The translations under genes were made by a program, and so were the position numbers. DNA of 64,000 nucleotides, taken from positions 2,905-66,904 of the forward strand of contig JAGNHS010000006.1 in the NCBI GenBank assembly GCA_018001635.1. Direction: 5' to 3'. Numbering within the stretch: the first letter of the stretch is position 1; each line of letters begins with the position of its first letter. Under the pieces are notes generated by a model. It had not been told where the DNA came from. It saw nothing but the letters and a program-made list of their open reading frames with translations, and did no database searches. This document shows, in pieces, positions 3,241 to 63,019 of the stretch. The stretch comes from Pseudomonadota bacterium. Lineage in GTDB: Bacteria; Bdellovibrionota; UBA2428.

Positions 3241-4209
3241 CTACTTATACAAACCAATTTCACGAAGTCTTTGTGCCAAATATTCGCCTGCAGTGGTGGC
3301 GGGGTCTTTGGGGGGATTCTCGGCACTTGTGCAAGTGTCGAGAGCTGCTAATGACATGTCCGAAATGGGGTGTAGAAAAAAGGGAATAGAAAAACGAGGC
3401 TTGCTCATAGCAGAGCGATCTGTTGGATTCACGACTTGGTGTGTGGTGCTTTTAAGTCTGTAATTAGTGAGACGCTGAAGCATGTCGCCCACGTTAACTA
3501 CGATTTCATCGCGTCCACTTTGAAGTGCGACCCATTCGCCTTTGCGGTTTTTAACTTGGAGGCCGGGTTCAGATGCGCCAATCAAAAGTGTGATGAGGTT
3601 GATGTCTTCATGTGCAGAGGATCTGTAGGCTTTGGGTTCTTCATCACCCCTAAGTGGAGGGTAGTGAATGGGGCGAAGTATAGAATTTCCGTAACGGACT
3701 TTTTCAGTAAAATAATCTTCTGGAACTTCAAGTATGATGGAGATAGCTCTGAGCATGTCGATGCCAAGTTCCAGTAAACCACTATAGAGATTTCTAAGTG
3801 TTTGATCGAAGTCTTTCACATCGGATACGGAAACGTTTTTGGGATAAACTTTTGATAGTGGGTTGCTTTCGGGAACCTCAACACCAACATGAAAGAATTC
3901 TTTAAGATCAAATACAGGATTGTCTTTGGCGTGCTCTGTTTTAAAAGGTGTGAAACCTCGGGCGCCACCAGTATTTGGAATGTGGTATTTCATTTTTGTC
4001 TCATTGGGGAGAGCAAAAAAGTTTTGAACCACTTCATAACTTTTTTCTTGCAACTGTGAACTCACCTTGTGACCTTTGATGATCACAAAACCAATGTCTT
4101 CGTAGGCCGTTCGTAATCCCTGAACAAAGGCCTTTTTATCGCTAGAATTATTAGAATAAAATTGGTTGATATCGAGTGTAAGAATTTGGCTCATAGGCCT
4201 CGAATACAT
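3241..4209 (-). CDS. 2-oxoglutarate/Fe(II)-dependent oxygenase (isopenicillin N synthase-like family)
   Basis: N-terminal DIOX_N-like region (FVQGLRTAYEDIGFVIIKGHKV) and 2OG-FeII_Oxy core (AHEDINLITLL...GDMLQRLTNYRLKSTTHQVVNP) with the HxD...H triad pattern. Confidence 0.8.
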   Translation of the reverse strand: MYSRPMSQILTLDINQFYSNNSSDKKAFVQGLRTAYEDIGFVIIKGHKVSSQLQEKSYEVVQNFFALPNETKMKYHIPNTGGARGFTPFKTEHAKDNPVFDLKEFFHVGVEVPESNPLSKVYPKNVSVSDVKDFDQTLRNLYSGLLELGIDMLRAISIILEVPEDYFTEKVRYGNSILRPIHYPPLRGDEEPKAYRSSAHEDINLITLLIGASEPGLQVKNRKGEWVALQSGRDEIVVNVGDMLQRLTNYRLKSTTHQVVNPTDRSAMSKPRFSIPFFLHPISDMSLAALDTCTSAENPPKDPATTAGEYLAQRLREIGLYK

Positions 4210-14168: not shown

Positions 14169-15353
14169 ATGTATCCATCCCAAAAAAAACATCTTTTAGA
14201 TCTTTGGGTGGAGTATTGGACTCAGTCGGCCTATCAAAAATTTGATTTGTTTTTAGCTCGAGCTTTTAAAAAGCGACCCTTTATGGGGAAGCGCGATAGG
14301 GCTTGGTATTCTGAACAATTATTTACAGCTTTGCGTTTTGGTCTTTTAGCCATGGATTTAAAAACCAGTGATGAAATTTTTAAAGATGCCTCAATGTTGG
14401 CCTCTAAAGTTGCAAAAGTTGATGAAAATTTTTTTGATAAGGTCGAAGAAATTTCAAAAAATTCTCAAAATCACAGTGACTCTTCTTTTGAGAGTTTTTC
14501 TTGGCATCCTGATTGGATTCCTTTTTTTGAAAAATCTGGCTTGGATTTTAATAGACTTTCAAATTTAAACACTCGGGCTCCACTTTGGTTGAGAGCTAAA
14601 AGTCTTGCTGATTTAGAAAATATTAAAAAAGATCTTTCGCAAAGAAACATCGAATTTATAGTGGATGGATTGGCGTTGAAGGTGAGTGGAAACCCAAAAC
14701 TCCATGAGTGGACGAGTTTTAAGATGGGATCCTTCGAAATTCAAGATTGGGCCAGTCAGCAGATTTCATTGCTGGCACCCTTAAAAAAGGATGCTCTGGT
14801 GTGGGATGCTTGTGCTGGGGGTGGGGGTAAAACTTTGCAATTATCCGCGATTTTAGAAAACACTGGCGCAGTGATTGCTTCTGATGTGAGAGCCTTTAAA
14901 TTTGATGAAATTAAAGCAAGGGCCCTTAAAGCTCGAGCTCAAAACATAAGTTGTGTGGCTTGGGATGGCCGGCCTCAAATGCCGAATTTTCCTCAAGCTG
15001 TTTCTGATCATGGTGGATTTGATTTAGTGCTAGTGGATGCTCCTTGTTCGTCTTCCGGAACGGTGAGAAGAAACCCAGAGATTAAATGGCAAAGTCCTCA
15101 TTTGAAGTTGAGGACTCTTTCACAAACTCAGCTTCACATTTTAGAGGCTGTAGAAAAATCTGTAAAAACAGGTGGTCATTTATTGTATGGCACCTGTAGC
15201 TTTTTAAATGATGAAAACGAAGAGATCGCAAAGAAGTTTGCTGAAAAAATGGGAGCTCGTTGGAAGTTTTTAGAATTTAAGAAGCTCGGTTACTCGAAAG
15301 ATAATGATTCTGATTTGATGTTTGCAGCAATTTTTCAAAAGCTGACAAAATAG
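14169..15353 (+). CDS. RsmB/RsmF (NOL1/NOP2/Sun) family rRNA cytosine-C5 methyltransferase
   Basis: SAM motif DACAGGGGKTLQL. Catalytic motifs VLVDAPCSSSGTVRRNPEIKW and LLYGTCSF. ATG at 14169 is preferred over the track's upstream GTG (14142). Confidence 0.8.
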   Translation: MYPSQKKHLLDLWVEYWTQSAYQKFDLFLARAFKKRPFMGKRDRAWYSEQLFTALRFGLLAMDLKTSDEIFKDASMLASKVAKVDENFFDKVEEISKNSQNHSDSSFESFSWHPDWIPFFEKSGLDFNRLSNLNTRAPLWLRAKSLADLENIKKDLSQRNIEFIVDGLALKVSGNPKLHEWTSFKMGSFEIQDWASQQISLLAPLKKDALVWDACAGGGGKTLQLSAILENTGAVIASDVRAFKFDEIKARALKARAQNISCVAWDGRPQMPNFPQAVSDHGGFDLVLVDAPCSSSGTVRRNPEIKWQSPHLKLRTLSQTQLHILEAVEKSVKTGGHLLYGTCSFLNDENEEIAKKFAEKMGARWKFLEFKKLGYSKDNDSDLMFAAIFQKLTK

Positions 15354-15463
15354 ATGTTTTGTTGTCTGAATCTGAATTTAAGTGGAGCAAACTTTTGGAA
15401 TATTTAAAATTCTGAGTTTTGTGCTTTGGTCTAATTTATTATTCAAATCTGCTAACCCCTTAA

Positions 15464-16048
15464 CTATGAAAACCCTGTGGAGCTAAGTTTTGTATTGTTT
15501 TCAATAAATTTAATTCTTTCATAAATTTCTCTAGCAGAAACTCTAGAGATTTTTAGATTAACTTCAATTCTATTAAGTTTTAAGTAATCAACGGCATTTT
15601 TAAAGTGACGTCCCCAGGAAATGATTCGACTCCAGGGCCGGGCGTCCCAGAATCTACGTTTTGAATCTTTCAATACAGCCGAATTTCTGTGAGCTCCTAG
15701 AACTTTTCGAGCTATTAGTGAAGATATAATTCTCAAAAACTTTCTAAATTCTCTGCGATTATGGGCTCGAAGGACCAAATGTATATGATTTCCAGCGTTC
15801 GCAATTTGGTAAATATTTACAAAAAAGCGATTGGCTTGCTTTCGTATTTCAGAATCAATTATTTTGCTTTTTAAAAGAAGTGAATACTTCCCTTTAGCTA
15901 AAGTAGATCTCAACACTACATGTTGTGCGTATTTTGAATGAAAAGGTCGTGCCACTTTGGCGTTGTTGCCGTTAAGTAGAGAGCCTCCAAATCCGTCTTT
16001 AGTCCATTTTTGTTCTTCTTTAATTAAAAAAAGCTTACGGTTTCTCAA
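15464..16048 (-). CDS. IS200/Y1-type HUH transposase-like protein (RAYT/REP-associated tyrosine transposase-like), solitary
   Basis: HUH motif in GNHIHLVLRA. Downstream candidate catalytic Tyr lies in AVDYLKLNRIE. Size (194 aa) is typical of RAYT/TnpA-REP proteins. No IS ends or flanking hairpins were seen. Confidence 0.65.
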   Translation of the reverse strand: MRNRKLFLIKEEQKWTKDGFGGSLLNGNNAKVARPFHSKYAQHVVLRSTLAKGKYSLLLKSKIIDSEIRKQANRFFVNIYQIANAGNHIHLVLRAHNRREFRKFLRIISSLIARKVLGAHRNSAVLKDSKRRFWDARPWSRIISWGRHFKNAVDYLKLNRIEVNLKISRVSAREIYERIKFIENNTKLSSTGFS

Positions 16049-16355
16049 TACGTTTAGTAATAATGTAGCTAATTAAATGTGTCAAATAGAAATTAAAAAT
16101 AGCTAAGGGATTTTTTGGAAGATTGAAAAGAATCGCATGCAAATAGACCCAGAAGTTCTGAGCTGAAAGATGAGCCTAGGGCACATCTATGTAATAAATG
16201 GATCTATCTTTTAGGTTCGGGTATTAGTTTTTAGTATAATCTTCATACAATATTCACATTCAAATGCCCTTATAAGAAATTTAGACAGTTTTTTAACCAT
16301 AATTTAACTTGGTCTTATTGGGCTCTGAACCGATAATAGTAAGTCGGGGGCGTGA

Positions 16356-18068
16356 ATGGGTTATACTTTTAATCTGCGTAAAATTCATGTCTCTTTAATG
16401 GGTGTCTTTTTAGCTTTGTCGACTCAAGCTGAAGTCTGTAAAAATCTGAAAATCACTCCTTCTATTATATCTACATTTAATAAATATAATAGAGCCACAA
16501 AAGACTATGAAAATCTTGGTCCTGAGGCTTTTGTAAATTCCATGGCTCTAACAAAGCTCGATTCAAAATTTATGATTTCCTTATTGAAGGGACTTCCTCC
16601 TCTTCCGAAACTTTCATGGGATCAAAAAGAGTTTTGGGTATTGCGCCTTAGAGATAAAAACAAAACAGCAGTTCTAGATTTTTGTAAAATTGATGATAAC
16701 GAAGTGAGTGTGAATGGGTATAAATTCAAAATATCCGAGAAAATGAGTGTAGAAGAATTGGCTCAGTTTTTAGAACCACTTTTTCCGAAACAAAACAATA
16801 TTGGGTTTCTTTTGTGGATACAAAATCAGATTATACCCTCTGCCGAAGCCGTAACAGTAATGGGCGGAGCCATGATTGGTGCCTTGGCGGGTCTTGCAGG
16901 TATGCTTCTTATGAATGTATTTAACGGAAATTCGTCTAGTAAAACGCAATCTCAACCCGCACCTCACATTACGGTGTCTGATGTGGGTTCAGGAGGCTCT
17001 CTACCTGGGCATACTGGCGCTGGAGCTTCTCCTGCTGGTGGAGCTCCTGCTGGGAGCGCGCCTGGAGAGGCTCCCCCAGATGCTCAAAATCCTGCTGGCG
17101 CAAATTCTGGGGGTGCACAACCTAATGGAGGAGCTGCCGGCTCAGGTGCGGGCGGAGCAAAACCCAATGCCACGCCAAACGCTCCATCAGCTAATAATGG
17201 CGAAACAAAGTGTAGCGATAAAACGACACCTATAGCAGGAGATAGAAAAGCAGAGCTCAGTAAACTTTCAGACGATCAAATCAAAAATTTTCAATGTTTT
17301 TCAAAATATCATGAATTTGGAAATTCAAAACTTCAAGTAGCCCAATGGAATGATGGTGAAGATTGGCTATCTCTAGGGGTGGGTCATTATATTTGGTATC
17401 CTAAGGAGGGAGAAAAAAAATATACTGAGAGCTTCCCGGATCTCATTAAATTTGCATGCAGTAATGGTTACACAGGCAGTCTACCCAAAGAGATTGGATA
17501 TACGGGAGGCAATCCAGTTTTAGGAGTCTGTCCTTGGAATAGCAAAAAGGAATTCGAAGATCCTAAAACTAAAAATTCAGATGAGTTAAAAAATATTCAG
17601 AACTTTTTATTAGGCCAAGATATGCAAAAGCAACAAGCGCTTTTTCAATACAACCGACTTTTAGATTTTATGGATAAGTGGAAACCAGCTAATAAAGTTG
17701 AAGAACATGCAAAAGAGTTTGCAGGTAGACTCATGCAAGATCCCAAAGGACTTTTGCAAATGATCGACTATGTGAATTTTAAAGGAGAGGGAACAGCTCC
17801 TGGTGAATACTATAAAAACAACAAGGGTGAAGTAGATCGGTGGGGTTTGAAACAGGTTTTAGAAACAGCAGTTAATGAAGGTCAGGGATTAACTTTTATT
17901 GAAGCCGCGAAAAGTACATTAAATAGAAAAATTAATACTGATCCCAAGATTTGTGAAAAACATACTAATCCTGAAGAATGTAAAAAAGACCTTAAAGCTG
18001 GTTGGGAAAAGAGAATCAACGACTATTCCAATATTGCTACGGCTCAATCGAAGTACAATTGTAAATAA
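16356..18068 (+). CDS. Exported/membrane protein with Gly/Ala/Pro-rich disordered linker and uncharacterised C-terminal domain
   Basis: Signal peptide (MGVFLALSTQA|EV) and an internal hydrophobic helix (VMGGAMIGALAGLAGMLLMNVF). A low-complexity segment of about 90 aa follows (GAGASPAGGAPAGSAPGEAPP...). The C-terminal domain of about 280 aa (WLSLGVGHYIWYPKEGEKKYTESFPD) was not confidently assigned. Confidence 0.6.
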   Translation: MGYTFNLRKIHVSLMGVFLALSTQAEVCKNLKITPSIISTFNKYNRATKDYENLGPEAFVNSMALTKLDSKFMISLLKGLPPLPKLSWDQKEFWVLRLRDKNKTAVLDFCKIDDNEVSVNGYKFKISEKMSVEELAQFLEPLFPKQNNIGFLLWIQNQIIPSAEAVTVMGGAMIGALAGLAGMLLMNVFNGNSSSKTQSQPAPHITVSDVGSGGSLPGHTGAGASPAGGAPAGSAPGEAPPDAQNPAGANSGGAQPNGGAAGSGAGGAKPNATPNAPSANNGETKCSDKTTPIAGDRKAELSKLSDDQIKNFQCFSKYHEFGNSKLQVAQWNDGEDWLSLGVGHYIWYPKEGEKKYTESFPDLIKFACSNGYTGSLPKEIGYTGGNPVLGVCPWNSKKEFEDPKTKNSDELKNIQNFLLGQDMQKQQALFQYNRLLDFMDKWKPANKVEEHAKEFAGRLMQDPKGLLQMIDYVNFKGEGTAPGEYYKNNKGEVDRWGLKQVLETAVNEGQGLTFIEAAKSTLNRKINTDPKICEKHTNPEECKKDLKAGWEKRINDYSNIATAQSKYNCK

Positions 18069-25477: not shown

Positions 25478-25538
25478 TTTTATTGATTATCGATCCGCTT
25501 AATTTTTGTCTATGCCAAGAATCCCTTTGTTCAATGAT

Positions 25539-25730
25539 CTATTGTGCGCGAGGAAACGGGCCTGGCTTATGAGCACCAAAATTTATTAATATCTTTAAAT
25601 TCAAAGACTAGAGCATCTTGGGGTGAGCGATGAGGCAGCGCCTCGAGCTTCAGGGGTCGCCCAAGCCGCTCTAGTTTTTGAATTTAAAGGTATATATAGA
25701 TTTCCAGGCCCGGTTCTTCGCGCACAATAG
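25539..25730. repeat. Long intergenic imperfect palindrome (about 190 bp, composite hairpin)
   Basis: Outer arms are CTATTGTGCGCGAGGAAACGGGCCTGG (25539-25565) and CCAGGCCCGGTTCTTCGCGCACAATAG (25704-25730), with 2 mismatches. Inner arms are CTTTAAATTCAAAGACTAGAGC and GCTCTAGTTTTTGAATTTAAAG. Further pairing occurs near the centre (CTTGGG/CCCAAG). Confidence 0.7.
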
Positions 25731-52608: not shown

Positions 52609-53148
52609 ATGCGAGTCGTTTTTGTTTTTTCTTTTTTATGGGCTGCGCTTCTTTATTCTGCCACAACGAGTCAAGATTCTGCGAGCACTATATATTTTAA
52701 GGTGCTCAAGGGTTTTGATGTAGAAAAAAAGAAATCAAATGCTGAAGTAGACGCATTAGTCGGCAAAAAAATTCGCATTCCTGGATTTATGGTTCCTCTT
52801 GAATATAAATCTCAAAAGGTGACTGAGTTTTTGTTAGTACAGTCTCTTCCCTCTTGCATTCACGTACCTCCCCCCTCTCCTAATCAAACCATTATGGTGA
52901 AGATGAAGGATAAAAAAACAGTGTCTTTGAGTATGGATCCCATTTGGGTGACAGGAATCTTAAAATTGGTCAAACAAGACAAATATACATTTGGTGATGC
53001 CGTTTATAGCATTGAGGGCGAGTCTTCTGCTCCTGTAGATTCAAAAGACTTTAATAAAGTGGGTTTATTTATGGGAGATCAGGTGGATATGGCTCCTTTA
53101 GAGGAGAATCCTTTTGGTGGTGAGAGTAAAACTAAGAAAAAGAAATAG
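52609..53148 (+). CDS. Exported DUF3299 domain protein
   Basis: Signal peptide is present. The DUF3299-like core is KKIRIPGFMVPLEYKSQKVTEFLLVQSLPSCIHVPPPSPNQTIMVKM...PIWVTGILK. Confidence 0.65.
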   Translation: MRVVFVFSFLWAALLYSATTSQDSASTIYFKVLKGFDVEKKKSNAEVDALVGKKIRIPGFMVPLEYKSQKVTEFLLVQSLPSCIHVPPPSPNQTIMVKMKDKKTVSLSMDPIWVTGILKLVKQDKYTFGDAVYSIEGESSAPVDSKDFNKVGLFMGDQVDMAPLEENPFGGESKTKKKK

Positions 53149-53185
53149 AAATAGTTTAAGAAATAGACTTAAAGGGTACGACATT

Positions 53186-53761
53186 ATGAAAAAGCATTTT
53201 TTAAAATCCCTAACATTAAGTTTGTGTCTCTCAATAACTTTGATGGCCAAAGAAAAACATCATCATCATGAGTCTTTGGCAAAGCATATTCACGGTGAAG
53301 CTAATCTCAATTTGATACTTGAAGATGATAAAAAGGGTGAGCTTGAATTTGAGGCCCCTGGCATGGATGTCGTTGGATTTGAATACGATGCCAAAACACC
53401 CAAGGAAAAAGAGAAGCTCAATCAAGTTTTGTCAGAATTTAAAAGCAAAGCTCAAGAATTATTTGTTTTGGATGCAAGTCTAAAATGCGTTTTAACTCCT
53501 AAAGAGGTGGCCTGGGAATCGGAGGATCACGAAGAGCCTGAAGGCGTTCATAGAGATCATGAAAAACAGCCCGTCGCAGAACATCATGCGATTGAAGCTT
53601 CTTACTCTATAAATTGTCAAAAGCCTCTTAAGGGGACTCGTTTTAATTTGGAGCTTTTCAAAAAATTTAAATCGTTAAAAAAAGTCAATTTTCAGTATAT
53701 GGGCAGCAATCTTCAGCGGGCCAGCGAGTTGTCTGCTGGAAAGTCTAGCATTGAGCTCTAA
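53186..53761 (+). CDS. Exported His-rich DUF2796 protein (ZrgA-like periplasmic zinc-binding protein)
   Basis: ATG 53186 gives signal peptide MKKHFLKSLTLSLCLSITLMA. Then KEKHHHHESLAKHIHGEANLNLILEDD...LEFEAPGMDVVGFEY, typical of DUF2796. More His/Glu lies in the middle (HEEPEGVHRDHEKQPVAEHH). Confidence 0.7.
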   Translation: MKKHFLKSLTLSLCLSITLMAKEKHHHHESLAKHIHGEANLNLILEDDKKGELEFEAPGMDVVGFEYDAKTPKEKEKLNQVLSEFKSKAQELFVLDASLKCVLTPKEVAWESEDHEEPEGVHRDHEKQPVAEHHAIEASYSINCQKPLKGTRFNLELFKKFKSLKKVNFQYMGSNLQRASELSAGKSSIEL

Positions 53762-54455
53762 AGAGTCCATTTCTGTAGAGGCTTTAGAGTTTTCATATGT
53801 AAGAAATTCTAAGCCCTTGTTAAAAATTCCTGATTTAAAAATATTAAATGGAGATAGAGTTTTTTTATTTGGCCCAAGTGGTTCCGGAAAAAGCACCTTG
53901 CTTTCATTGCTCACTGGAGTTTTGAAACCTCAAAAAGGCAAGATAACACTTTTAAATAATTTTGAAATATCTCAGGCTAATACTATGGCGGCCGATATTT
54001 TTCGGGGGGCGCATATGGGGTATATATTCCAGCAGTTTAATTTGCTTCCTCATTTAAGCGTGCGCGAAAATATTTCATTAGTTTTGGATTTAAATCCTCT
54101 CCGATTAAATAAAGTTTTAAAATCAAGCACTGTTGAATTGGAAATTAAAAGATTAGCTCAACATTTAGAGATTGAAAATATCTTAGATCGCTCTGCAATG
54201 GCTATTAGTGTTGGTCAGCAACAACGAGTTGCCGCTGCTCGTGCCTTAATTGGTGCTCCGGACATTATTATTGCTGATGAACCCACATCTTCTTTGGATA
54301 CAGATCGCCGAGATCTTTTTATGAAAATGATTCTTAGTGAAGTTGAATTGAGTCAAAGCACTTTGATTTTTGTGAGTCATGATCAAAGTTTGATGAAGCA
54401 TTTTAATAAGCATTTTTCTATTCTGGATTGGAGTGCAGAGGGAGTCGTGCAGTGA
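53751..54455 (+). CDS. ABC transporter ATP-binding protein (MacB/LolD-type)
   Basis: Walker A GPSGSGKST, Q-loop, signature SVGQQQRVAAARAL, Walker B IIIADEPTSSLD and H-loop VSHD. The TTG start overlaps the upstream stop. Confidence 0.9.
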   Translation: MSSKESISVEALEFSYVRNSKPLLKIPDLKILNGDRVFLFGPSGSGKSTLLSLLTGVLKPQKGKITLLNNFEISQANTMAADIFRGAHMGYIFQQFNLLPHLSVRENISLVLDLNPLRLNKVLKSSTVELEIKRLAQHLEIENILDRSAMAISVGQQQRVAAARALIGAPDIIIADEPTSSLDTDRRDLFMKMILSEVELSQSTLIFVSHDQSLMKHFNKHFSILDWSAEGVVQ

Positions 54456-55711
54456 TTTGGTGGCGTTTGGCGATTCGTTCTCTTGTCTTTCGTTGGCAGG
54501 CTTCATTACTAACTGTAGTTTCTATGGCGCTCAGTGTGGCGCTTTATTGTTCGGTTGAATCTCTGCGGTTGGGGGTTCATGAAACTTTTGAACAAACTGT
54601 AAGTCAAACAGATCTTATCGTGGGTGCTCGAAGCTCACCTCTGAATATTATTTTATACACCCTTTTTCATATGGGCGATGCTACGAACAATCTTCGTTAT
54701 GAAACTTTTAAGAAAATTTCATCGCATCCCGTAGTTCGATGGAGCATTCCTTTTTCTTTGGGTGATTCCCATCGTGGCTTTAGGGTGATGGCCACTAATG
54801 AAAGTTTTTATGAGTTTTTTCAATTTCGTGGGAATTGGCATATTGAATTTAATTCTGGAACTTTAGCCAAAGATGTTTTCGATGTTGTTTTAGGTTCCGA
54901 AGTGGCGGCCCGCTTGAATTACAAACTGAATGACAGAGTTGTGATTGCCCATGGAATGAGTTCAGAGAAGGGTGCTTTTTCAGAGCACAGTGATAAACCA
55001 TTTCATGTGGTGGGTATTTTGAAGCGCACAGGGACACCGGTCGATCGGGCTCTTTTTATAACTCTTGAAGGAATGGAAGCTATTCATATTAATTGGAAGG
55101 ATGGCTCAGCAGATGAATCTTCAACTCCTAAAGCGATAACAAAAGATCAGATTAAGGTGACACAAATCACATCTTTTCTATTGGGGCTGAAGTCGCGTGT
55201 TGCAGTTTTACATATGCAAAGGATGATTCAAAATTATGCGGATGAGTCTCTTGAGGCGGCTATTCCTGGTTTTGTACTGAGCCGCTTTTGGGAAAGTCTT
55301 GGAGCCTTTGAGCGCACTTTAAGTTTAATGACTCTAGCTATCTTTATAGTGGGGCTTATAGGTATGTTGATTGCATTGCTGACGTCTTTGGATCAGAGGC
55401 GAAGAGAAATGGCTGTCTTGAGGGCTTTGGGTTCTAGGGCTTTTCAAATATTTATTTTACTTTTAAGCGAAGCTTATTTTTTGATGGCTTCTTCTATTGT
55501 TGCAGGTTTGGGTCTCTATTCTCTTTTGTTCTTTCTCTTTCGTGATTTTGTTGAGTCAAAATATGGTGTGGTTTTAGTCTTGTGGCCCTTTGATTCTGAG
55601 AATCTCTATATTCTTTTAGGTCTCTTTGTGGCGGGAACTATCGCGGCATTAATACCTGCAGCTGTTGCCTACCTTAGAAGTGTTTCAGATGGATTGCAGC
55701 AAAGAACTTAG
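54428..55711 (+). CDS. ABC transporter permease, FtsX/MacB-type
   Basis: N-terminal TM, a large periplasmic domain, and a C-terminal FtsX 3-TM bundle (RRREMAVLRALGSRAFQIFILLLSEA...). The likely true start is the in-frame GTG at 54452, which overlaps the ATPase stop (GTGA). Confidence 0.85.
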   Translation: MECRGSRAVIWWRLAIRSLVFRWQASLLTVVSMALSVALYCSVESLRLGVHETFEQTVSQTDLIVGARSSPLNIILYTLFHMGDATNNLRYETFKKISSHPVVRWSIPFSLGDSHRGFRVMATNESFYEFFQFRGNWHIEFNSGTLAKDVFDVVLGSEVAARLNYKLNDRVVIAHGMSSEKGAFSEHSDKPFHVVGILKRTGTPVDRALFITLEGMEAIHINWKDGSADESSTPKAITKDQIKVTQITSFLLGLKSRVAVLHMQRMIQNYADESLEAAIPGFVLSRFWESLGAFERTLSLMTLAIFIVGLIGMLIALLTSLDQRRREMAVLRALGSRAFQIFILLLSEAYFLMASSIVAGLGLYSLLFFLFRDFVESKYGVVLVLWPFDSENLYILLGLFVAGTIAALIPAAVAYLRSVSDGLQQRT

Positions 55712-55865
55712 TTTAAAAAGTATTTGGTTTAATAGAAAAGCATGTCATAATAATTTTGCTTAGGTTCATAATTACAGGATTTAAATGATATGAAGTTTTT
55801 CATTAATTTAAATAGTGAAATTCTTTTAGAATTTAAAATTGTCTGTTCAAAGTTTTAGGTGAGAG

Positions 55866-57881
55866 ATGAATGTGGGGAGATTGTTGAATTTTAACTTTGT
55901 ATTGCAAGAAAAGTCATTTTCATTTTTAAAAAAAATTGTTTTTAACATCTCCTGGTGTTTATTGTTGACGCTTTCAGCCTCTTCTTTAACCTATTATTGT
56001 CAGGATGGAGTTAATTGCTATTTGTCCGATGGAGCCACTACAACTTTTCATAATTATGGCACAGACTGGAAGGCTAGTGCTAGCACTGGTTATGCCGGAG
56101 ACATCGGTGTCATTTCGACTGACGGAAGCATAAGAGTGACGTCTTCGGTGGCTTTAGCTGGTGCAGTGGCTTCTATTCAGTTCACTTCAGGTTCTTATAT
56201 AGTTGAATTGATATCGAGCGGAGGTCATGGTTCTGCGTTTCAACATGCAGCACATATGTGGGGTGAATGTGGTTTTGCCACTGAATGTGATAATCCAACG
56301 GAAGCAGGTTCGTTGGATGATGACTTCACTAAAGATCCCAGTACTGGGTTAGCCAAAAAAGAAACTTGGGGCGATCCAGTAAAAGCAAATTTATTGTCAA
56401 CGAAAGGGTTTCATGGGGTTGAAGGTTCTACAGATGGCTCGTCTAGTAGCCGAATTCATACATTTGAAGTTTTGCAAAATCCAGATACGGGTGCACAAAA
56501 TAGAATTCACTCTATAGTAAATATGGCTAATTTTGTAGCCCCCGATGGACGATCGGAATATAATTGGTGCAAGCCAAAACATTTATTGAATGTGCCTTCA
56601 ACTCAACCCATGGGGGATTGGTTGGAGAAATGGGTTGATGTTGGTGTGAATTTAAACGGCACACTATACCCTGATATCATTAGAACCAAATCTCGTTTTG
56701 TACCAGGTAGAGGAGCTCCGTTTGCAGATAATCGATTGATTGCTTATTTGAATGCTGGAGTTTTTACATGGCAAGCATTGTATAATCCTCGCACTGATAA
56801 ATATGTTGACCTTTTAGCTATAAGTCGTGACCTTGGATATTATGATTATTTATATAAATTAAATAAAGATTTTCAGGATACAGCACTTTGGCTTTCAACT
56901 GCTGTAGCAAGCGGAGTCAGTGCGGCAGATATTGAACTAGGAAAATCTTATCAAGAAACTCGCATCAAGCAATTAACGGATCTTCATCAAGCTTTCGAAA
57001 CTGAAAAATATGAGCGTATGAAAAAGGCGACACCTCCATCGGAGCTTGATAATTTTATTTATCAACCCTGGGTTGCTATAGCTACCAATCCTGATGGAAA
57101 TGTTGCAATGGGAATGATGGTTATGCCAACGTCGAGAGACGTGAATCATGTTATTTGGCAAGTGTCTTATACCGACGCCTCTTGGCAGATTGCCAATCCC
57201 AACTACCCTTATAGTTATGTTACTTTGAATGCACATGATTTTTACCGTAATGTAAAAAAAGATCAGGAATATATTATGAATTCCTATGCATTTGTTGGAA
57301 CTTTTGATCGTGTTAAAACCTTAGCTAAAGCAGTCTGCAAATCAAAAAATCTTTGCGGTTCAGATACAAGTTTATTGCAAAAACCCCCTGAAGACCCGAG
57401 CTTTTTTACCTCAGATAGTAACACTCTACCAGTTTGTCGGTACTATAGTGTAGATACGGGAAGATATACCGAACTTTCTTACGGGCGATATGGAAGTGGA
57501 AGTTCTTGGTTTGGGGGAAATTGGTATATTGGAATACCTGGAGATATTTACGCTGGAGGTTATTCCATTGCTAAATTGGCAAATCCTGATGATGGTAAAT
57601 TCGCCATTGTTGGTGCAGATATTCCACTTTATCGTTGTCTTTATGGTCATGCAAAAAGTGGGACTTATTTTACATTTGTTTCTAAAGATGAAAAATGCGA
57701 AGGCCAAGTGAAGCAAGATATTTTAGGATATGGCTGGTCCTCCAATACGGGAGGGTTAAAAGAGTTGGCTAGGTGCTTTAGGTCAACGCCTTCACAGACT
57801 TCGATATTAACTACTAACCCCGGATCTGATTGTTCTGGATGGAGTGAAATTATACATTTAGGGGTGTGGGCTATACCATGA
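55866..57881 (+). CDS. Large exported hypothetical protein (671 aa), translationally coupled to a prepilin gene
   Basis: Hydrophobic N-terminus (ISWCLLLTLSASS). Gly/aromatic-rich. The Cys-containing C-terminal part has repeated motifs (VCRYYSVDTGRYTELSYG; PLYRCLYGHAKSGTYFTFVSKDEKCEG). The stop overlaps the next ATG (ATGA at 57878-57881). Confidence 0.6.
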   Translation: MNVGRLLNFNFVLQEKSFSFLKKIVFNISWCLLLTLSASSLTYYCQDGVNCYLSDGATTTFHNYGTDWKASASTGYAGDIGVISTDGSIRVTSSVALAGAVASIQFTSGSYIVELISSGGHGSAFQHAAHMWGECGFATECDNPTEAGSLDDDFTKDPSTGLAKKETWGDPVKANLLSTKGFHGVEGSTDGSSSSRIHTFEVLQNPDTGAQNRIHSIVNMANFVAPDGRSEYNWCKPKHLLNVPSTQPMGDWLEKWVDVGVNLNGTLYPDIIRTKSRFVPGRGAPFADNRLIAYLNAGVFTWQALYNPRTDKYVDLLAISRDLGYYDYLYKLNKDFQDTALWLSTAVASGVSAADIELGKSYQETRIKQLTDLHQAFETEKYERMKKATPPSELDNFIYQPWVAIATNPDGNVAMGMMVMPTSRDVNHVIWQVSYTDASWQIANPNYPYSYVTLNAHDFYRNVKKDQEYIMNSYAFVGTFDRVKTLAKAVCKSKNLCGSDTSLLQKPPEDPSFFTSDSNTLPVCRYYSVDTGRYTELSYGRYGSGSSWFGGNWYIGIPGDIYAGGYSIAKLANPDDGKFAIVGADIPLYRCLYGHAKSGTYFTFVSKDEKCEGQVKQDILGYGWSSNTGGLKELARCFRSTPSQTSILTTNPGSDCSGWSEIIHLGVWAIP

Positions 57882-58525
57882 AATTAAAAACTAATTATTA
57901 CGGATTTACTATTGTAGAAGTTGTTATGAGTGTTGGAATCGGGGCTATTGCTTTGGTTCTTTTGGCGACGATCATAAACAATGGAATGAAATCTTTAAAT
58001 AAGATTGAAGTCAGTCAAGACCGAGATGAGGCTTTACGTTTAGCAAGGTTGGTATTATTGCAGCCAGGCCAATGTCGATGCAATTTTAAGGAATTGGTGT
58101 TGTCTGATACGGCACCAACACCAGTTAGCGCTATATCTCTATTTGCCAACACTCAAACGTGTGCCAATCCTACGGTAATTTTAAAAATAGGGCAAAAAGT
58201 GGGACAAGCAACTAAAAATATTTCTTCGATGGAATTACGTAAAATGGCTAATTTTGGAATTAAATCTACTTTAGCAGAGTTAAATGTTTTAATTTCTGGG
58301 GAATCTAATCCTGATACAGTTTTGTTCGGCGTTGACTATGGACCGTCCGGTATGAAAATTGCTCGATGTTACTTGGATCACCCCGCTACAGTCTCTAGAA
58401 TATGTAATACTTTTGTTAGCTCTACAGTCAACTCAAGCACTTGCCAAACAGGATGTACGCCCTTTGTTACTTCAGATGCCGGTGGATTGAAGTCAGGAAT
58501 TTGCTTGGAAGCTGCTACATTTTAA
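57878..58525 (+). CDS. Type IV prepilin-like protein (canonical class III signal peptide)
   Basis: MKLKTNYYG|FTIVEVVMSVGIGAIALVLLATII has Gly at -1, Phe at +1 and Glu at +5, followed by a hydrophobic helix. The C-terminal domain contains several Cys. Confidence 0.8.
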   Translation: MKLKTNYYGFTIVEVVMSVGIGAIALVLLATIINNGMKSLNKIEVSQDRDEALRLARLVLLQPGQCRCNFKELVLSDTAPTPVSAISLFANTQTCANPTVILKIGQKVGQATKNISSMELRKMANFGIKSTLAELNVLISGESNPDTVLFGVDYGPSGMKIARCYLDHPATVSRICNTFVSSTVNSSTCQTGCTPFVTSDAGGLKSGICLEAATF

Positions 58526-58533
58526 AAAATATT

Positions 58534-59181
58534 ATGAGAATGAAAAATAATTCAGGATCAATTCTAATGGCGGCGATTTTTACGGTAATATTTTTAGGAA
58601 TAATTGGATACACATTGCCCATTATTATTAAAAATTTTTCCACTAATAGATTAAACGAGGTCAAGGTACAGGCAGTAAAAGATTTGCATAGGCAACTCGT
58701 TTTGATCAGTACCTTAAGATCCAGTAAAGATTGTTGGATTAAGGATGTTCCAGATTCAAGCATTTTAAATTGGACCGATTTAAAAATTTACTCAGACAAT
58801 ACGTGTAGCTCATTTCAAAAATTATGGGAAGTTGGAAAAAATATTGGTTACTTAAAGTTAGAAAAAATCCAATGGAAGTTTAATTCTTTAGTCAATGGAT
58901 TTAGGGAAGGTAAATTAGTGCTTTCAGTATCTTCGAGCGCGTCCCCAAACTTGACCAAAACAATTGAATTAGATCTTGTTGCAAGGGTGGTGAGTGCTAA
59001 GTTTGTGTCTCTAAAATTAAAAAAAGCTCCTGATGGAGGTGGTGTTTGTCGAAGCTTCGCGCAAAATGCTTCAAGCCCTTTTACAATTTCTTGCCCCTCT
59101 GAATGCTTTCCATTTGTCACGCAAACAATAAACTCTGGTTTGAGTAATAAATTTTTTCGTGGACTGTGTTTAAGGTTATAG
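58534..59181 (+). CDS. Minor pilin-like protein lacking Glu+5 (PilX/GspK-like N-terminus)
   Basis: ATG 58534 gives MRMKNNSG|SILMAAIFTVIFLGIIGYTLPIII: a short basic leader, Gly at -1, a hydrophobic helix and no Glu at +5. The track start at 58441 overlaps the upstream gene and is rejected. Confidence 0.5.
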   Translation: MRMKNNSGSILMAAIFTVIFLGIIGYTLPIIIKNFSTNRLNEVKVQAVKDLHRQLVLISTLRSSKDCWIKDVPDSSILNWTDLKIYSDNTCSSFQKLWEVGKNIGYLKLEKIQWKFNSLVNGFREGKLVLSVSSSASPNLTKTIELDLVARVVSAKFVSLKLKKAPDGGGVCRSFAQNASSPFTISCPSECFPFVTQTINSGLSNKFFRGLCLRL

Positions 59182-59263
59182 GTGCTACGCGTTAGTGTTT
59201 GTGTTGATGCTTCAGTCTACTTTAAGAAAGATCAGATAAACTGTAATTGAAATTTAGATTAAA

Positions 59264-60385
59264 ATGATAAAAAAAATAGTCAGAAAAAAAAATGCATTTA
59301 CAATAGTACAAGTTATGGTCGCCCTTGCTCTGGCGGGTCTGTTGATGCTCAGTGTTTCTCAAATTGTTAGTTATATAAATAATGCGAGCGTTCAATCGAA
59401 GTCTACAGCGACACTTAATTTTCTTAAAAGCCAAGCTATTTCTATTCAAAAAGATCTTCCTTCATGGTTAGAAAAACTTCGGCTATCAAATTCATTATTA
59501 GCAAATTGCATTCCTTCTGGAAGTGTCACTCTTTTTTCTTGCCCGCCAGGAGGTGTTAATGACCCTCAAATCACGGCATTGTTTTCAGGACAAATTATTA
59601 CAAGTGTTGCATTAGTCGACTTTTTTCAAAAACCCTTAACAGGTACTGAGACTAGTCCACTTTATTTGGATATTTCTGGATCTCCTTGTATGACTACATC
59701 TTGTCAAAAGTTCTCACTTGTTGGATATATGGCTCGCGAAAATACATCTGGTAATCCAGGATCTATTGAATTTGCCTATAAAATCGTAACTTTTAAAACT
59801 CAGGTGAATGAAGTGCCAACAAAAGAAGTTATTGTAAGAATCCCTGTAGGAAAAAACTGGACAGACATGTCGGGACAATGTCCTCCAGCTGGATTCCCAA
59901 AACGAACATTAATGACTGGTATAGATTCTAATAGAATTCCAATTTGTATCGAGCCACCTCCTATTCCTCTGAGTTGTCCTCCTAACCATATATTGGCTCC
60001 CAATGGAAGTGGTGGCTTAATGTGTGCACTAATTCCACTTCCTAAAATAGTATGTACTGTGAGATCTTCTGATTTGTCGGGATTAGGATTTCCGGGCGCT
60101 ACTTGCCAAGCGGGTGAAGTATTAACAGGAGGAGGTTTTAAAGCTCACAATCCTAATGTTGCCTCGGAAACTTTTAGTAATTGTATAAAGACTTATAAAA
60201 CTCCTACAGCAGTAACTTCTGAAACAATTGGTTGGCCACATTCGATGGAGCCCATTGGTAATCAAATATGGGTAAATTTTTGGAGAGGACAGGTTGAACC
60301 AAAGGCTGATGGTGTTGGAAATACTGTTCACGAATATGATACTTGTGGAATTTCTTATGCCATTTGTTGTAAAATCTCACATTAA
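59264..60385 (+). CDS. Large pilin-like protein (373 aa) with variant class III signal peptide (Ala-1, Gln+5)
   Basis: MIKKIVRKKNA|FTIVQVMVALALAGLLMLSVSQIV has the prepilin architecture, with Ala at -1 and Gln replacing Glu at +5. The large C-terminal domain is Cys/Pro-rich. Confidence 0.6.
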   Translation: MIKKIVRKKNAFTIVQVMVALALAGLLMLSVSQIVSYINNASVQSKSTATLNFLKSQAISIQKDLPSWLEKLRLSNSLLANCIPSGSVTLFSCPPGGVNDPQITALFSGQIITSVALVDFFQKPLTGTETSPLYLDISGSPCMTTSCQKFSLVGYMARENTSGNPGSIEFAYKIVTFKTQVNEVPTKEVIVRIPVGKNWTDMSGQCPPAGFPKRTLMTGIDSNRIPICIEPPPIPLSCPPNHILAPNGSGGLMCALIPLPKIVCTVRSSDLSGLGFPGATCQAGEVLTGGGFKAHNPNVASETFSNCIKTYKTPTAVTSETIGWPHSMEPIGNQIWVNFWRGQVEPKADGVGNTVHEYDTCGISYAICCKISH

Positions 60386-60470
60386 ATATAATTGATTTTA
60401 GTCAATTCTGATTTTCATTTGGATGTATTTAGAATAGCTATTTTTGTTTTGTGTCAAATACAGAGAAAGG

Positions 60471-61766
60471 CTAATTAATTTTGTTAGTCTCTTCTACATA
60501 GGAGAGAATGCTCTTTTTAATTTCATTCACATCATCGCTGTCGACAACGTTGTCTAGGGGGTTGCCGGCAATTTCTTTAGTATTAATGTTGCTTTCCTTT
60601 ATGTAAATTTCCCAAATGCTTTGATTTTCAGCGCGGTCTCTATCGATGGACTTTCCTAGTTGATTGATTTTCAGTAAACCAAGTGAGCCTGTGTGATAGA
60701 AAAAGGCATTGTCTTTTTCGTTTTGTGTTTCGTTTGTAAGATCGCCAAGATTTTTAATTCCCATAGATAATATGGTTTTATGTTTTACAAAATCGGCCGC
60801 ACCTTCAGCGTATTCAAGGTGCCGTAGCATCTTATAAGTTTCGGGATATTTTGATTTAAGCTCTTTGAGGCACCACTCAATTTTGCTGAGAGACATTTTT
60901 TCTTCTTCGGGATTGGGTTGCGGGATGGATGTGATTTTAAAAACTTCTTTTTTATAAAGTTGGAGTAACTTGAAAACCTCAGGTTTGTTGTTCACTTCTT
61001 TTAATGTGTCTTCATCGGAATAATTTTCAGTAGTTTTACCAAAAGGTGGATTTTCTTCTCTGTTTCTGTCGCCTTCTATTACATGAAAGCTTTCATGGAT
61101 AAATGTTTCAAAAAAAATATTTCCTGATCCCTTTGGAAATTGTTTTTGATAGAAACTTTCGTTGGGAAAAAGTTTGCGTATAGGAGTTTCGTCTGGGGAG
61201 TAAATCGGCATTGTCTCAGCGCCAAGAGCTACGCGTAGAGGATGTTTTTTGTCGAAGTAATTTTCGTTAAAGGGGAGTGGAACAGGGAATCTCGCCCCTT
61301 GAAGATAAGTGAAGCCTAGAATCTCTCCCGTTCCTTGTTGCGAATCAATGTTTTGAGTGTTGATATTTTTTAATTCGTAGACTTTTCGGCCCATTCTTTG
61401 AGAGAGTTCTGGATTTTCCTTCATTCCAGCAACGGGTTCTTTATCCCAATTGAAAATATAAAGTGTAGCTATACCTTTTTCAGCTTTTCCAACTAAGCCA
61501 ATGGGACTTTTGCTGAGATTAAATTCTTTAAGGGTAGGGCCCATGTAGGCTTCGAGCGGGTGTTCTTGGTGTTCTTTAAGAAGATTTAGAAAATCTTCGA
61601 CTTTTTGATTTTCGTCTTTATTTAAATTCGGAATGATAGATTTATTGTCTGAAGTTTCTTGGCGGGGAGTGCTTTCATTTACATTTTTTGAGCTTTTGTT
61701 TGCGGTGTGTTCAGCCCAAGCGCTTATGTTAAGGATCAGTGAAACAAGTATGGCAAATAGACACAT
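60471..61766 (-). CDS. Exported hypothetical protein with HExxH motif (putative zinc metallopeptidase)
   Basis: Signal peptide MCLFAILVSLILNISAWA|EH. A single HESFH motif (61082-61096) lies in FFETFIHESFHVIEGD. No family assigned. Confidence 0.5.
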   Translation of the reverse strand: MCLFAILVSLILNISAWAEHTANKSSKNVNESTPRQETSDNKSIIPNLNKDENQKVEDFLNLLKEHQEHPLEAYMGPTLKEFNLSKSPIGLVGKAEKGIATLYIFNWDKEPVAGMKENPELSQRMGRKVYELKNINTQNIDSQQGTGEILGFTYLQGARFPVPLPFNENYFDKKHPLRVALGAETMPIYSPDETPIRKLFPNESFYQKQFPKGSGNIFFETFIHESFHVIEGDRNREENPPFGKTTENYSDEDTLKEVNNKPEVFKLLQLYKKEVFKITSIPQPNPEEEKMSLSKIEWCLKELKSKYPETYKMLRHLEYAEGAADFVKHKTILSMGIKNLGDLTNETQNEKDNAFFYHTGSLGLLKINQLGKSIDRDRAENQSIWEIYIKESNINTKEIAGNPLDNVVDSDDVNEIKKSILSYVEETNKIN

Positions 61767-61897
61767 TATTAATGCCTATCGGTAGCCATACTTGCTGTCT
61801 CAATGGCGGAATTAAATTAAATTTATTAGAGGAAAATCCGCGTTAATGTCTTGAGCTTAATAGGAATAATTAATTAATCTTAACTAAGTATTTTTAC

Positions 61898-62040
61898 GGA
61901 TTCTACTGTGCGACGTAAAGAGTGGGGCATGTGTGGGACCTGATCAATTGAGAGGGAGAGTCGTGGCGAGGGCTCGAAGGAGATCTGCATTTTTCCTAAG
62001 CATTTTGCTTCAAACACTCTTAACGTCGCACAGTAGATTC
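61898..62040. repeat. Intergenic element bounded by 26-27-bp inverted repeats (about 143 bp)
   Basis: Left arm is GGATTCTACTGTGCGACGTAAAGAGTG (61898-61924). Right arm is CACTCTTAACGTCGCACAGTAGATTC (62015-62040). They show 1-2 mismatches. The roughly 90-bp interior is not obviously self-complementary. A partial direct copy, GATTCTGTGCGA, follows immediately (62036-62047). Confidence 0.7.
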
Positions 62041-62175
62041 TGTGCGATCTTGATGGATTGGGGTTGAATTATCATGTGATTACATGTGTTTACCGTGAGT
62101 TCATAATCTAATTGTTATCTTGGGTTGAGCGACTTTAGATTGAGACTCTATCTTTAGTCTGCTAAGGCTTTGTCC

Positions 62176-62907
62176 ATGTTTGAGAGTCTTTTTGCCTATT
62201 TATCCTCGGCATTTTTATTGGGAGTCTCTCATAGTCTTCAGCCCGGACATGGTAAAACCACAGCCCTAACTTTCGGAACCGATCTCAAGCGCAATTGGGT
62301 TGATCTCGTGATTTTGTCTTTTTCAGCGGCGGCCTTTCAGTTGGCGCTGCTTTTATTTTTAGGTTTGGTTCTTCAGTGGAGCCTTTTTTCATTCTTTAAA
62401 ACAGAGACTAAAACGATTTTTGCTTTAGGTGCTGCTGGGCTTATGGCTTTATGGGGAATTGTTGAAACCATTAGGGCCTCTTTGCAGTATCATTTTAGAA
62501 ATCGTCATCCCGTGAGTCCTTCTGAGTGTTCGTTGATGAAAAAACCATGGCTTCATAAAATTCTAGAACGATCTGTGATTTCTCGTTCTCGATATTTCTC
62601 AAGTTTTTTGGTGGGACTCAGCATTGGACTTATTCCTTGCCCTGTAGCCTTTAGTGGTTTGATGACCAGTCTTTTGAGTAAAGGAATGTTTGCGGCGCTT
62701 ATTTATTCTTCTATGTTTTGTTTGGGAATCGGTTCTGTTTTGCTTTTTTGCGCGAGCTCATTGCGTTGGCCTTTGCCTTTTACAAAAAAGCTTTATGTAT
62801 CTCTTTTGCACTTTGACGATAGGCATCCTTATGCGTTGTCTTTTATGCGTGGAATTGTCCTACTTTTTACGGCACTTTCACTCTTTTTAAATCTCTCTCC
62901 TGCTTGA
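62176..62907 (+). CDS. NicO/RcnA-family nickel/cobalt transporter-like membrane protein
   Basis: Signature HSLQPGHGKT in TM1 and GLIPCP in a later TM. Six or so TM helices. No His-rich loop. ATG 62176 is preferred to the track's TTG at 62170. Confidence 0.7.
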   Translation: MFESLFAYLSSAFLLGVSHSLQPGHGKTTALTFGTDLKRNWVDLVILSFSAAAFQLALLLFLGLVLQWSLFSFFKTETKTIFALGAAGLMALWGIVETIRASLQYHFRNRHPVSPSECSLMKKPWLHKILERSVISRSRYFSSFLVGLSIGLIPCPVAFSGLMTSLLSKGMFAALIYSSMFCLGIGSVLLFCASSLRWPLPFTKKLYVSLLHFDDRHPYALSFMRGIVLLFTALSLFLNLSPA

Positions 62908-63019
62908 GGAGCGCTACGCCCCGCAGCACTCGGGCTTAGAAAATTCACTCTGAAAAAAGTGTGGTAGAGGATAGTAGTCGTGCATGCTATCTTCGCTGCA
63001 GGGAAAGACACCTCTGAAA

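Follow-up and report, generated by a model that had tools for sequence, protein, structure and literature searches.

Intergenic region and inverted-repeat element

The window analysed here, that is, the whole 64-kb stretch of DNA, contains between two divergent genes an intergenic region of 409 bp (61767–62175), in good agreement with an earlier note on this DNA that had placed an inverted-repeat element in about 400 bp of intergenic sequence upstream of a NicO-type transporter gene. The genes and features of the locus are as follows.

60471–61766, minus strand: divergent upstream gene (431 aa), without a family hit
61896–61924, plus strand: left terminal inverted repeat (repeat finder), ACGGATTCTACTGTGCGACGTAAAGAGTG
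61905–61923: left arm core, ACTGTGCGACGTAAAGAGT
61925–62014, no strand: interior of 90 nt, about 50% GC
62015–62043, minus strand: right terminal inverted repeat (repeat finder), CACTCTTAACGTCGCACAGTAGATTCTGT
62016–62034: right arm core, ACTCTTAACGTCGCACAGT
62036–62047, plus strand: partial arm-like copy, GATTCTGTGCGA, overlapping and abutting the right end
62079–62107, plus strand: sigma-70-like promoter match, ATTACA-17-CATAAT, downstream of the element and before the start codon
62176–62907, plus strand: downstream gene, NicO/RcnA-like membrane protein (243/245-aa ORF), with family hits under curated cut-offs

The inverted-repeat element is indeed present, with arms of 29 nt each (61896–61924 and 62015–62043) that are 90% complementary and spaced by 90 nt, and the CTAC/GTAG tetranucleotides, the partial direct copy GATTCTGTGCGA that follows the right arm, and the comparatively GC-rich interior (49–51% GC versus 27–36% in the surrounding intergenic DNA) were all recovered as described. 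The similarity of the downstream gene product to NicO/RcnA is weak and lies under the curated cut-offs. The whole element measures 147–150 bp (about 61897–62043) and contains no transposase gene; its 90-nt interior is far below transposase-coding length and is not common to the other family members presented below, and stop codons occur in four of the six frames of the ~147-nt element, frames +0 and −2 being open throughout. When the 64 kb were searched with an 18-nt arm probe allowing up to 3 mismatches, both arm sites and no others were matched, whereas the expected count in 100 shuffles was 0.01 and two or more matches were reached in 0/100 of them.

The plus strand of the whole element, as RNA or DNA, is predicted to fold with −68.5 kcal/mol (z = −6.9), more stably than the minus strand, and this stability is due almost entirely to the long 29-bp terminal stem. 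In addition, the partial copy at 62036–62047, which is absent from the other family copies, forms an 8-bp hairpin (TCGCACAG/CTGTGCGA) with positions 62026–62033 of the right arm (ΔG −8.6 kcal/mol), a feature of the window copy only. The element ends 133 nt upstream of the metal-transporter gene, and its distance to either of the divergent start codons is about 130 nt; space for both promoters remains outside the element, making this a typical tolerated insertion site. One sigma-70-like site was found in the intergenic region as compared with 1.7 expected by chance, and the match at 62079–62107 is thus weak evidence for a promoter. Four near-identical metagenome contigs carry the window locus, and the element is essentially unchanged in them.

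Related elements at two other loci

A scan for the arm core among 185,579 species-representative genomes added two elements to that of the window, and a single uncultured Bacteriovoracaceae MAG contains both.

L009, 3731–4049: element flanked by convergent genes, directly 3′ of an epimerase stop codon
L010, 2843–3130: element directly 3′ of the stop codon of an amidase gene

Both elements begin 0–3 nt past a stop codon. The six arms of the window, L009, and L010 elements align over about 26–28 nt (AGAWTCTACTGTGCGACGTTAAGAGTGG), and the flanking sequences beyond the arms are unrelated. The interiors of the L009 and L010 elements are longer than that of the window element and unrelated to it, each containing one nested copy of a ~195-bp palindromic repeat. 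The element family is represented by three distinct loci in related Bacteriovoracaceae genomes, one of them within the 64-kb window. The arm had no match in viral contigs, and a 20-nt consensus arm gave no exact match in the JGI metagenomes.

The epimerase-locus copy is also found in L011 and L012, whose flanking proteins are 94% identical, and the amidase-locus copy in L014, derived from sample SRR11088468, in which the window's own locus is found as well. The orthologous copies are 92.8–94.6% identical, as compared with 91–92% at third-codon positions of the flanking genes, and their arms are no more conserved than their interiors. With a divergence like that of third-codon positions, the copies behave as old neutral insertions and, judged from these alignments, look like neutral fossils. 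The sequences GCGCCG in the left arm and CGGCGC in the right arm of L011, which look like a compensatory change, were considered as a sign of selection for pairing, an idea that was rejected, the C/C pair being the state of the IS ends described below.

Empty sites were sought through homologs of the genes flanking L009 and L010, a search that returned orthologous filled sites only (L011, L012, and L014), the homologs in L013, L015, and L016 (55–60% at the amino acid level) being too distant to inform. It was also observed that the L010 contig ends about 90 nt past the element and that the L014 contig ends inside the nested palindrome; these breaks are consistent with multi-copy repeats fragmenting MAG assemblies.

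An insertion sequence with the same ends

A second scan of the JGI metagenomes, with the degenerate core ACTGTGCGMCGTWAAGAGT, returned 12 loci, including complete copies of an insertion sequence (IS) that shares the arm core.

L021, 6219–7528: complete IS, perfect 22-nt inverted repeat, 1.3 kb apart, with one 377-aa ORF
L017, 2747–3940: complete IS, 22-nt inverted repeat of 91% (2747–2768 / 3919–3940), with a homologous 373-aa ORF
L026/L032: third insertion, IS of the L017 type, in a different context

This parent-type IS is 1.2–1.3 kb long, with 22-nt terminal inverted repeats (A)ACTGTGCGCCGTAAAGAGTKG and a single ORF of about 375 aa, and the complete copies in L021, L017, and L032 have the 19–22-nt arm core as their terminal inverted repeat. 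Between the left core of the window and the IS end ACTGTGCGCCGTAAAGAGT of L021 and L017 there is one mismatch, over 19–20 nt in the comparison with L021. Moreover, L017 and L032 align at 91% identity along a stretch of exactly 1198 nt that ends at the outer edges of the arms, and their flanks are unrelated; this boundary of homology shows that the unit is mobile. The transposases of the L021 and L017 types are 61–64% identical, and yet the ends are almost the same, which would be expected of a transposase-binding site. As for the remaining matches, L020, L024, L025, and L027 represent one coding gene and L022 and L023 one locus, and L018, L019, and L028 are single arms with neither an inverted partner nor a transposase; all of these were taken as chance matches.

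The outermost 7 nt differ between the two kinds of elements. The small elements, designated MITEs below, carry AGAWTCT, whereas the retrieved IS copies carry TTWA, and the outer segment of the window's left arm, (A)CGGATTCT, is peculiar to the MITE family. Because of this difference, the retrieved IS copies are regarded as relatives of the parent and not as the parent itself. A tblastn search of the 64-kb window for a homolog of the IS transposase found none. Two short matches extend the resemblance into the interior of the window element: GGCATGTG beside the left core, in common with L017 and not significant alone, and CTAAGCATTTT, 9–20 nt from the right core, in common with L021, a collinear 11-nt match whose score was reached by 4/2000 shuffles. 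These subterminal matches, collinear on both sides, are no more than suggestive of an origin by internal deletion.

Two further observations concern the insertion sites. The L017 IS occupies the loop of a hairpin in the host DNA (TGAGCACCT ... AGGTGCTCA; 2730–2747 / 3940–3956), between convergent genes and directly after an epimerase-like gene; together with the positions of the L009 and L010 elements after stop codons, this hints at a preference of the IS and MITEs for 3′ ends or terminators. In L021 (7533–7542), as in the window (62036–62047), an arm-like fragment just beyond the right end pairs with the arm, forming a right-end hairpin of 10 bp in the L021 IS and 8 bp in the window element. 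These fragments could be the footprint of an adjacent or aberrant insertion, or a coincidence.

The transposase-like protein and its relation to IS1

The ORFs of the L021 and L017 types matched the NCBIfam model transpos_IS1 over model positions 17–151 with 30–32 bits (E 1e-7 to 5e-7) against a cut-off of 100. The protein has a conserved N-terminal CxxC...CxxC zinc finger followed by a weak HTH similarity (GerE/Sigma70_r4-like), together with the conserved acidic motifs FDGLENF, IYDFNF, and LSDEHFQY and a probable DDE domain. A search for Pfam transposase domains, including those of IS1, detected none in it, and the L021 protein had no relatives among 72,556 plasmids, viral contigs, and PDB sequences; the transposase clusters comprise two members each.

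The parent-type IS thus resembles the IS1 family in its single ORF, its N-terminal zinc finger and HTH, and its match to transpos_IS1. It differs in scoring 32 versus 100 bits and in the Pfam IS1 domains, which were not detected. Furthermore, IS1 ends typically begin GGnnnTG, and those of the parent-type IS do not. Because of the sub-cut-off score and the absence of a Pfam domain, we call the IS remotely IS1-like and not a member of IS1. The 9-mers flanking the L021 insertion, CTAATTTTA and TTAATTTAA, are identical at 7/9 positions, as compared with 4/9 in L017 and 5/9 in L032; two of the three IS insertions showed no 8–9-bp duplication.

A second palindromic repeat family

The window contains a solitary copy of a ~195-bp palindromic element at 25534–25729, with termini TTGTGCGCGARGAAACGGGCCTGG and TA/TA flanks; its neighbours are genes for an S1/P1 nuclease and a LOG/lysine-decarboxylase-like protein, one on either side. 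It is 87% identical to the palindrome nested in the L009, L010, L011, and L014 copies. The first 9 nt of this repeat (ATTGTGCGC) resemble the IS terminus (ACTGTGCGC), and the repeat may derive from a related IS. In a comparison of L009 (3808–4002) with L011 (~1093–1290), the inner segment of the nested palindrome is inverted between the two strains and a 13-nt indel lies on mirrored sides, which suggests recombination between the nested element's own inverted repeats.

Interpretation as a probable MITE and alternative readings

MITEs are defined as small elements (about 50–600 bp) with no transposase gene, whose terminal inverted repeats match the ends of an autonomous IS and which recur at different loci with a target-site duplication like the parent's, a co-resident parent IS providing transposase in trans (PMC6382973). 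We consider the element at 61897–62043 to be a MITE, a non-autonomous derivative of the remotely IS1-like IS, with a probability of about 85%. The earlier note had left the choice between a REPIN-like doublet and a MITE; the occurrence of the same arms at unrelated loci and the identity of the core with an IS end speak for the latter, and the lack of a hairpin in single arms speaks against the former. In the MITE reading, the element would have arisen by internal deletion of a parent IS and, retaining just the two transposase-binding ends, would move only when the family transposase acts on it in trans. The window copy would now be an inactive fossil that lies between two divergent promoters and need not have any function. 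Candidate target sites are TA...TG at the window copy and TA...TA at L009 and L010, with 1-nt offset differences; when boundaries of 2, 3, 5, 7, and 9 bp were tried, no target-site duplication was consistent across the copies.

Just one copy with the window interior is known, so that it is possible that this copy never transposed as a MITE. A full-length IS could have inserted here and lost its interior in place, leaving a local scar that never moved in its small form. The window interior indeed has no second copy in the window, the 185,579 species representatives, or the JGI metagenomes, and the subterminal resemblance to IS ends that it may have at left and right fits this course of events equally well. 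Against it, L009 and L010 carry small non-autonomous elements with the same AGAWTCT outer arm, showing that small derivatives of this sub-lineage did spread, and we regard deletion in place as unlikely. The two accounts differ in history only, not in the sequence identity of the element.

The position 133 nt upstream of the metal-transporter gene and the very stable plus-strand fold (z = −6.9) might also point to an RNA structure that regulates this gene in cis, for instance a riboswitch-like element or a leader, or to an sRNA that controls it. This we judge very improbable, however, in that nearly all of the stability comes from the 29-bp terminal stem, the element is missing upstream of an 81%-identical ortholog of the transporter (L007), and the other family members share the arms only and occupy the 3′ ends of unrelated genes. 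Moreover, the sole promoter-like site is downstream of the element, and the orthologous copies diverge in a neutral-like manner. With the covariance models of Rfam 15, nothing in the whole window reached the gathering threshold, and 61000–63000 gave no match even at E ≤ 1.

Least credible of all is a REPIN or REP doublet mobilised by a RAYT-like HUH protein, a reading prompted by the CTAC/GTAG adjoining the arm core and by one weak Y1/IS200-like ORF in the window.

15464–16048, minus strand: RAYT-like ORF (194 aa), Pfam E 1.5e-3, NCBIfam REP_Tyr_transpos 28 bits versus a cut-off of 80

The element resembles REP/REPIN–RAYT systems in being an intergenic pair of inverted short repeats, and a GTAG/CTAC tetranucleotide is present. 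Each REP is a hairpin, however, and the arms here are not: single arms remain unfolded (ΔG 0 for the left arm of the window and both arms of L009, and −0.2 kcal/mol for the right arm of L010; the three arms folded with minimal flank all gave 0, and those folded with outer flank −0.2, 0, and, for the window's right arm only, −8.6 kcal/mol). This last value comes from the 8-bp hairpin, which requires the partial arm copy that lies outside the arm and is peculiar to the window. REPINs are also numerous and flank the RAYT gene, neither of which is true in the window, where there is one element in 64 kb and where a repeat search of 15200–16400 revealed no REP-like or arm-like repeats around the ORF. 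Finally, an IS with a transposase of a different type carries the arm core as its terminal repeat, and the CTAC by the core is TAAC (GTTA) in the homologous IS ends. The ORF at 15464–16048 might represent a Y1 protein that has degenerated or been domesticated.

The transporter locus and possible co-option

The sole diverged ortholog of the transporter locus, L007, encodes a transporter 81% identical in protein sequence, and no trace of the element was found in the 157-bp region upstream of it. There a MacB/FtsX permease gene immediately precedes the transporter gene. In the window, that permease gene ends a DUF3299-ZrgA-ABC cluster of the zinc-uptake type (52609–55711), and about 6.4 kb (55712–62175), absent from this position in L007, lies between the permease gene and the transporter. 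Because its upstream neighbour gene differs, L007 is not a clean empty site. The 6.4-kb segment holds five ORFs without Pfam hits, and the ORF at 59264–60385 has a prepilin-like N-terminus. A 14-bp near-palindrome, CATGTGATTACATG, at 62073–62086 overlaps the −35 element of the promoter-like site and is absent in L007; a metal-responsive regulator could use it as an operator.

After the 6.4-kb insertion the transporter may have been in need of a new promoter, and there is a small chance that the window element was co-opted for its expression. A wider proposal, which we put forward tentatively and think rather doubtful as a whole, is that of an IS group, undescribed as far as the searches show and rare, with a single-ORF Zn-finger/HTH transposase and strongly conserved 22-nt ends (AACTGTGCGCCGTAAAGAGTKG), that has left MITE derivatives in predatory Bacteriovoracaceae, the window element having possibly been co-opted, by way of a 5′ hairpin or an outward-facing promoter, for the expression of a metal-transporter gene parted from an ancestral Zrg-type ABC zinc-uptake cluster by the 6.4-kb insertion.

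Comparison with known elements and implications

Among the closest known counterparts is MITEAba12, a type I MITE from ISAba12, 60% of whose copies have no recognisable target duplications (PMC6382973). Like MITEAba12 (PMC6382973), the window element is about 150 bp long and ORF-less, has ends near-identical to IS ends, and lies in AT-rich intergenic DNA, with copies at unrelated loci. Unlike it, the window family has a very low copy number (three loci so far), and its outer 7 nt differ from those of the retrieved IS. For the window family, moreover, neither a consistent target-site duplication nor, in the 64-kb window, a parent IS in the same genome was seen. Correia/NEMIS elements of Neisseria, about 100–155 bp long with 26-bp terminal repeats, intergenic and possibly TA-flanked, have an architecture comparable to that of the window element. 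There is no sequence similarity to them, and whereas Correia elements number in the hundreds and are not known to have a parent IS, the window family has a tiny copy number and an identified parent IS family. The literature on the arm sequence and on MITEs in Bdellovibrio-like organisms yielded nothing relevant.

Collectively, the window element is probably an ordinary, inactive IS-derived MITE, and it opens no new biological question. The conspicuous, stable ~150-nt palindrome can be annotated as transposon debris, and not as a regulatory RNA or a REPIN, and the RAYT-like ORF at 15464–16048 should stay unlinked to it. As a by-product, the analysis provides a rare, remotely IS1-like IS with well-defined ends that is fit for IS catalogues, and IS/MITE repeats of this kind would help to explain the assembly breaks and small repeats in Bacteriovoracaceae MAGs.
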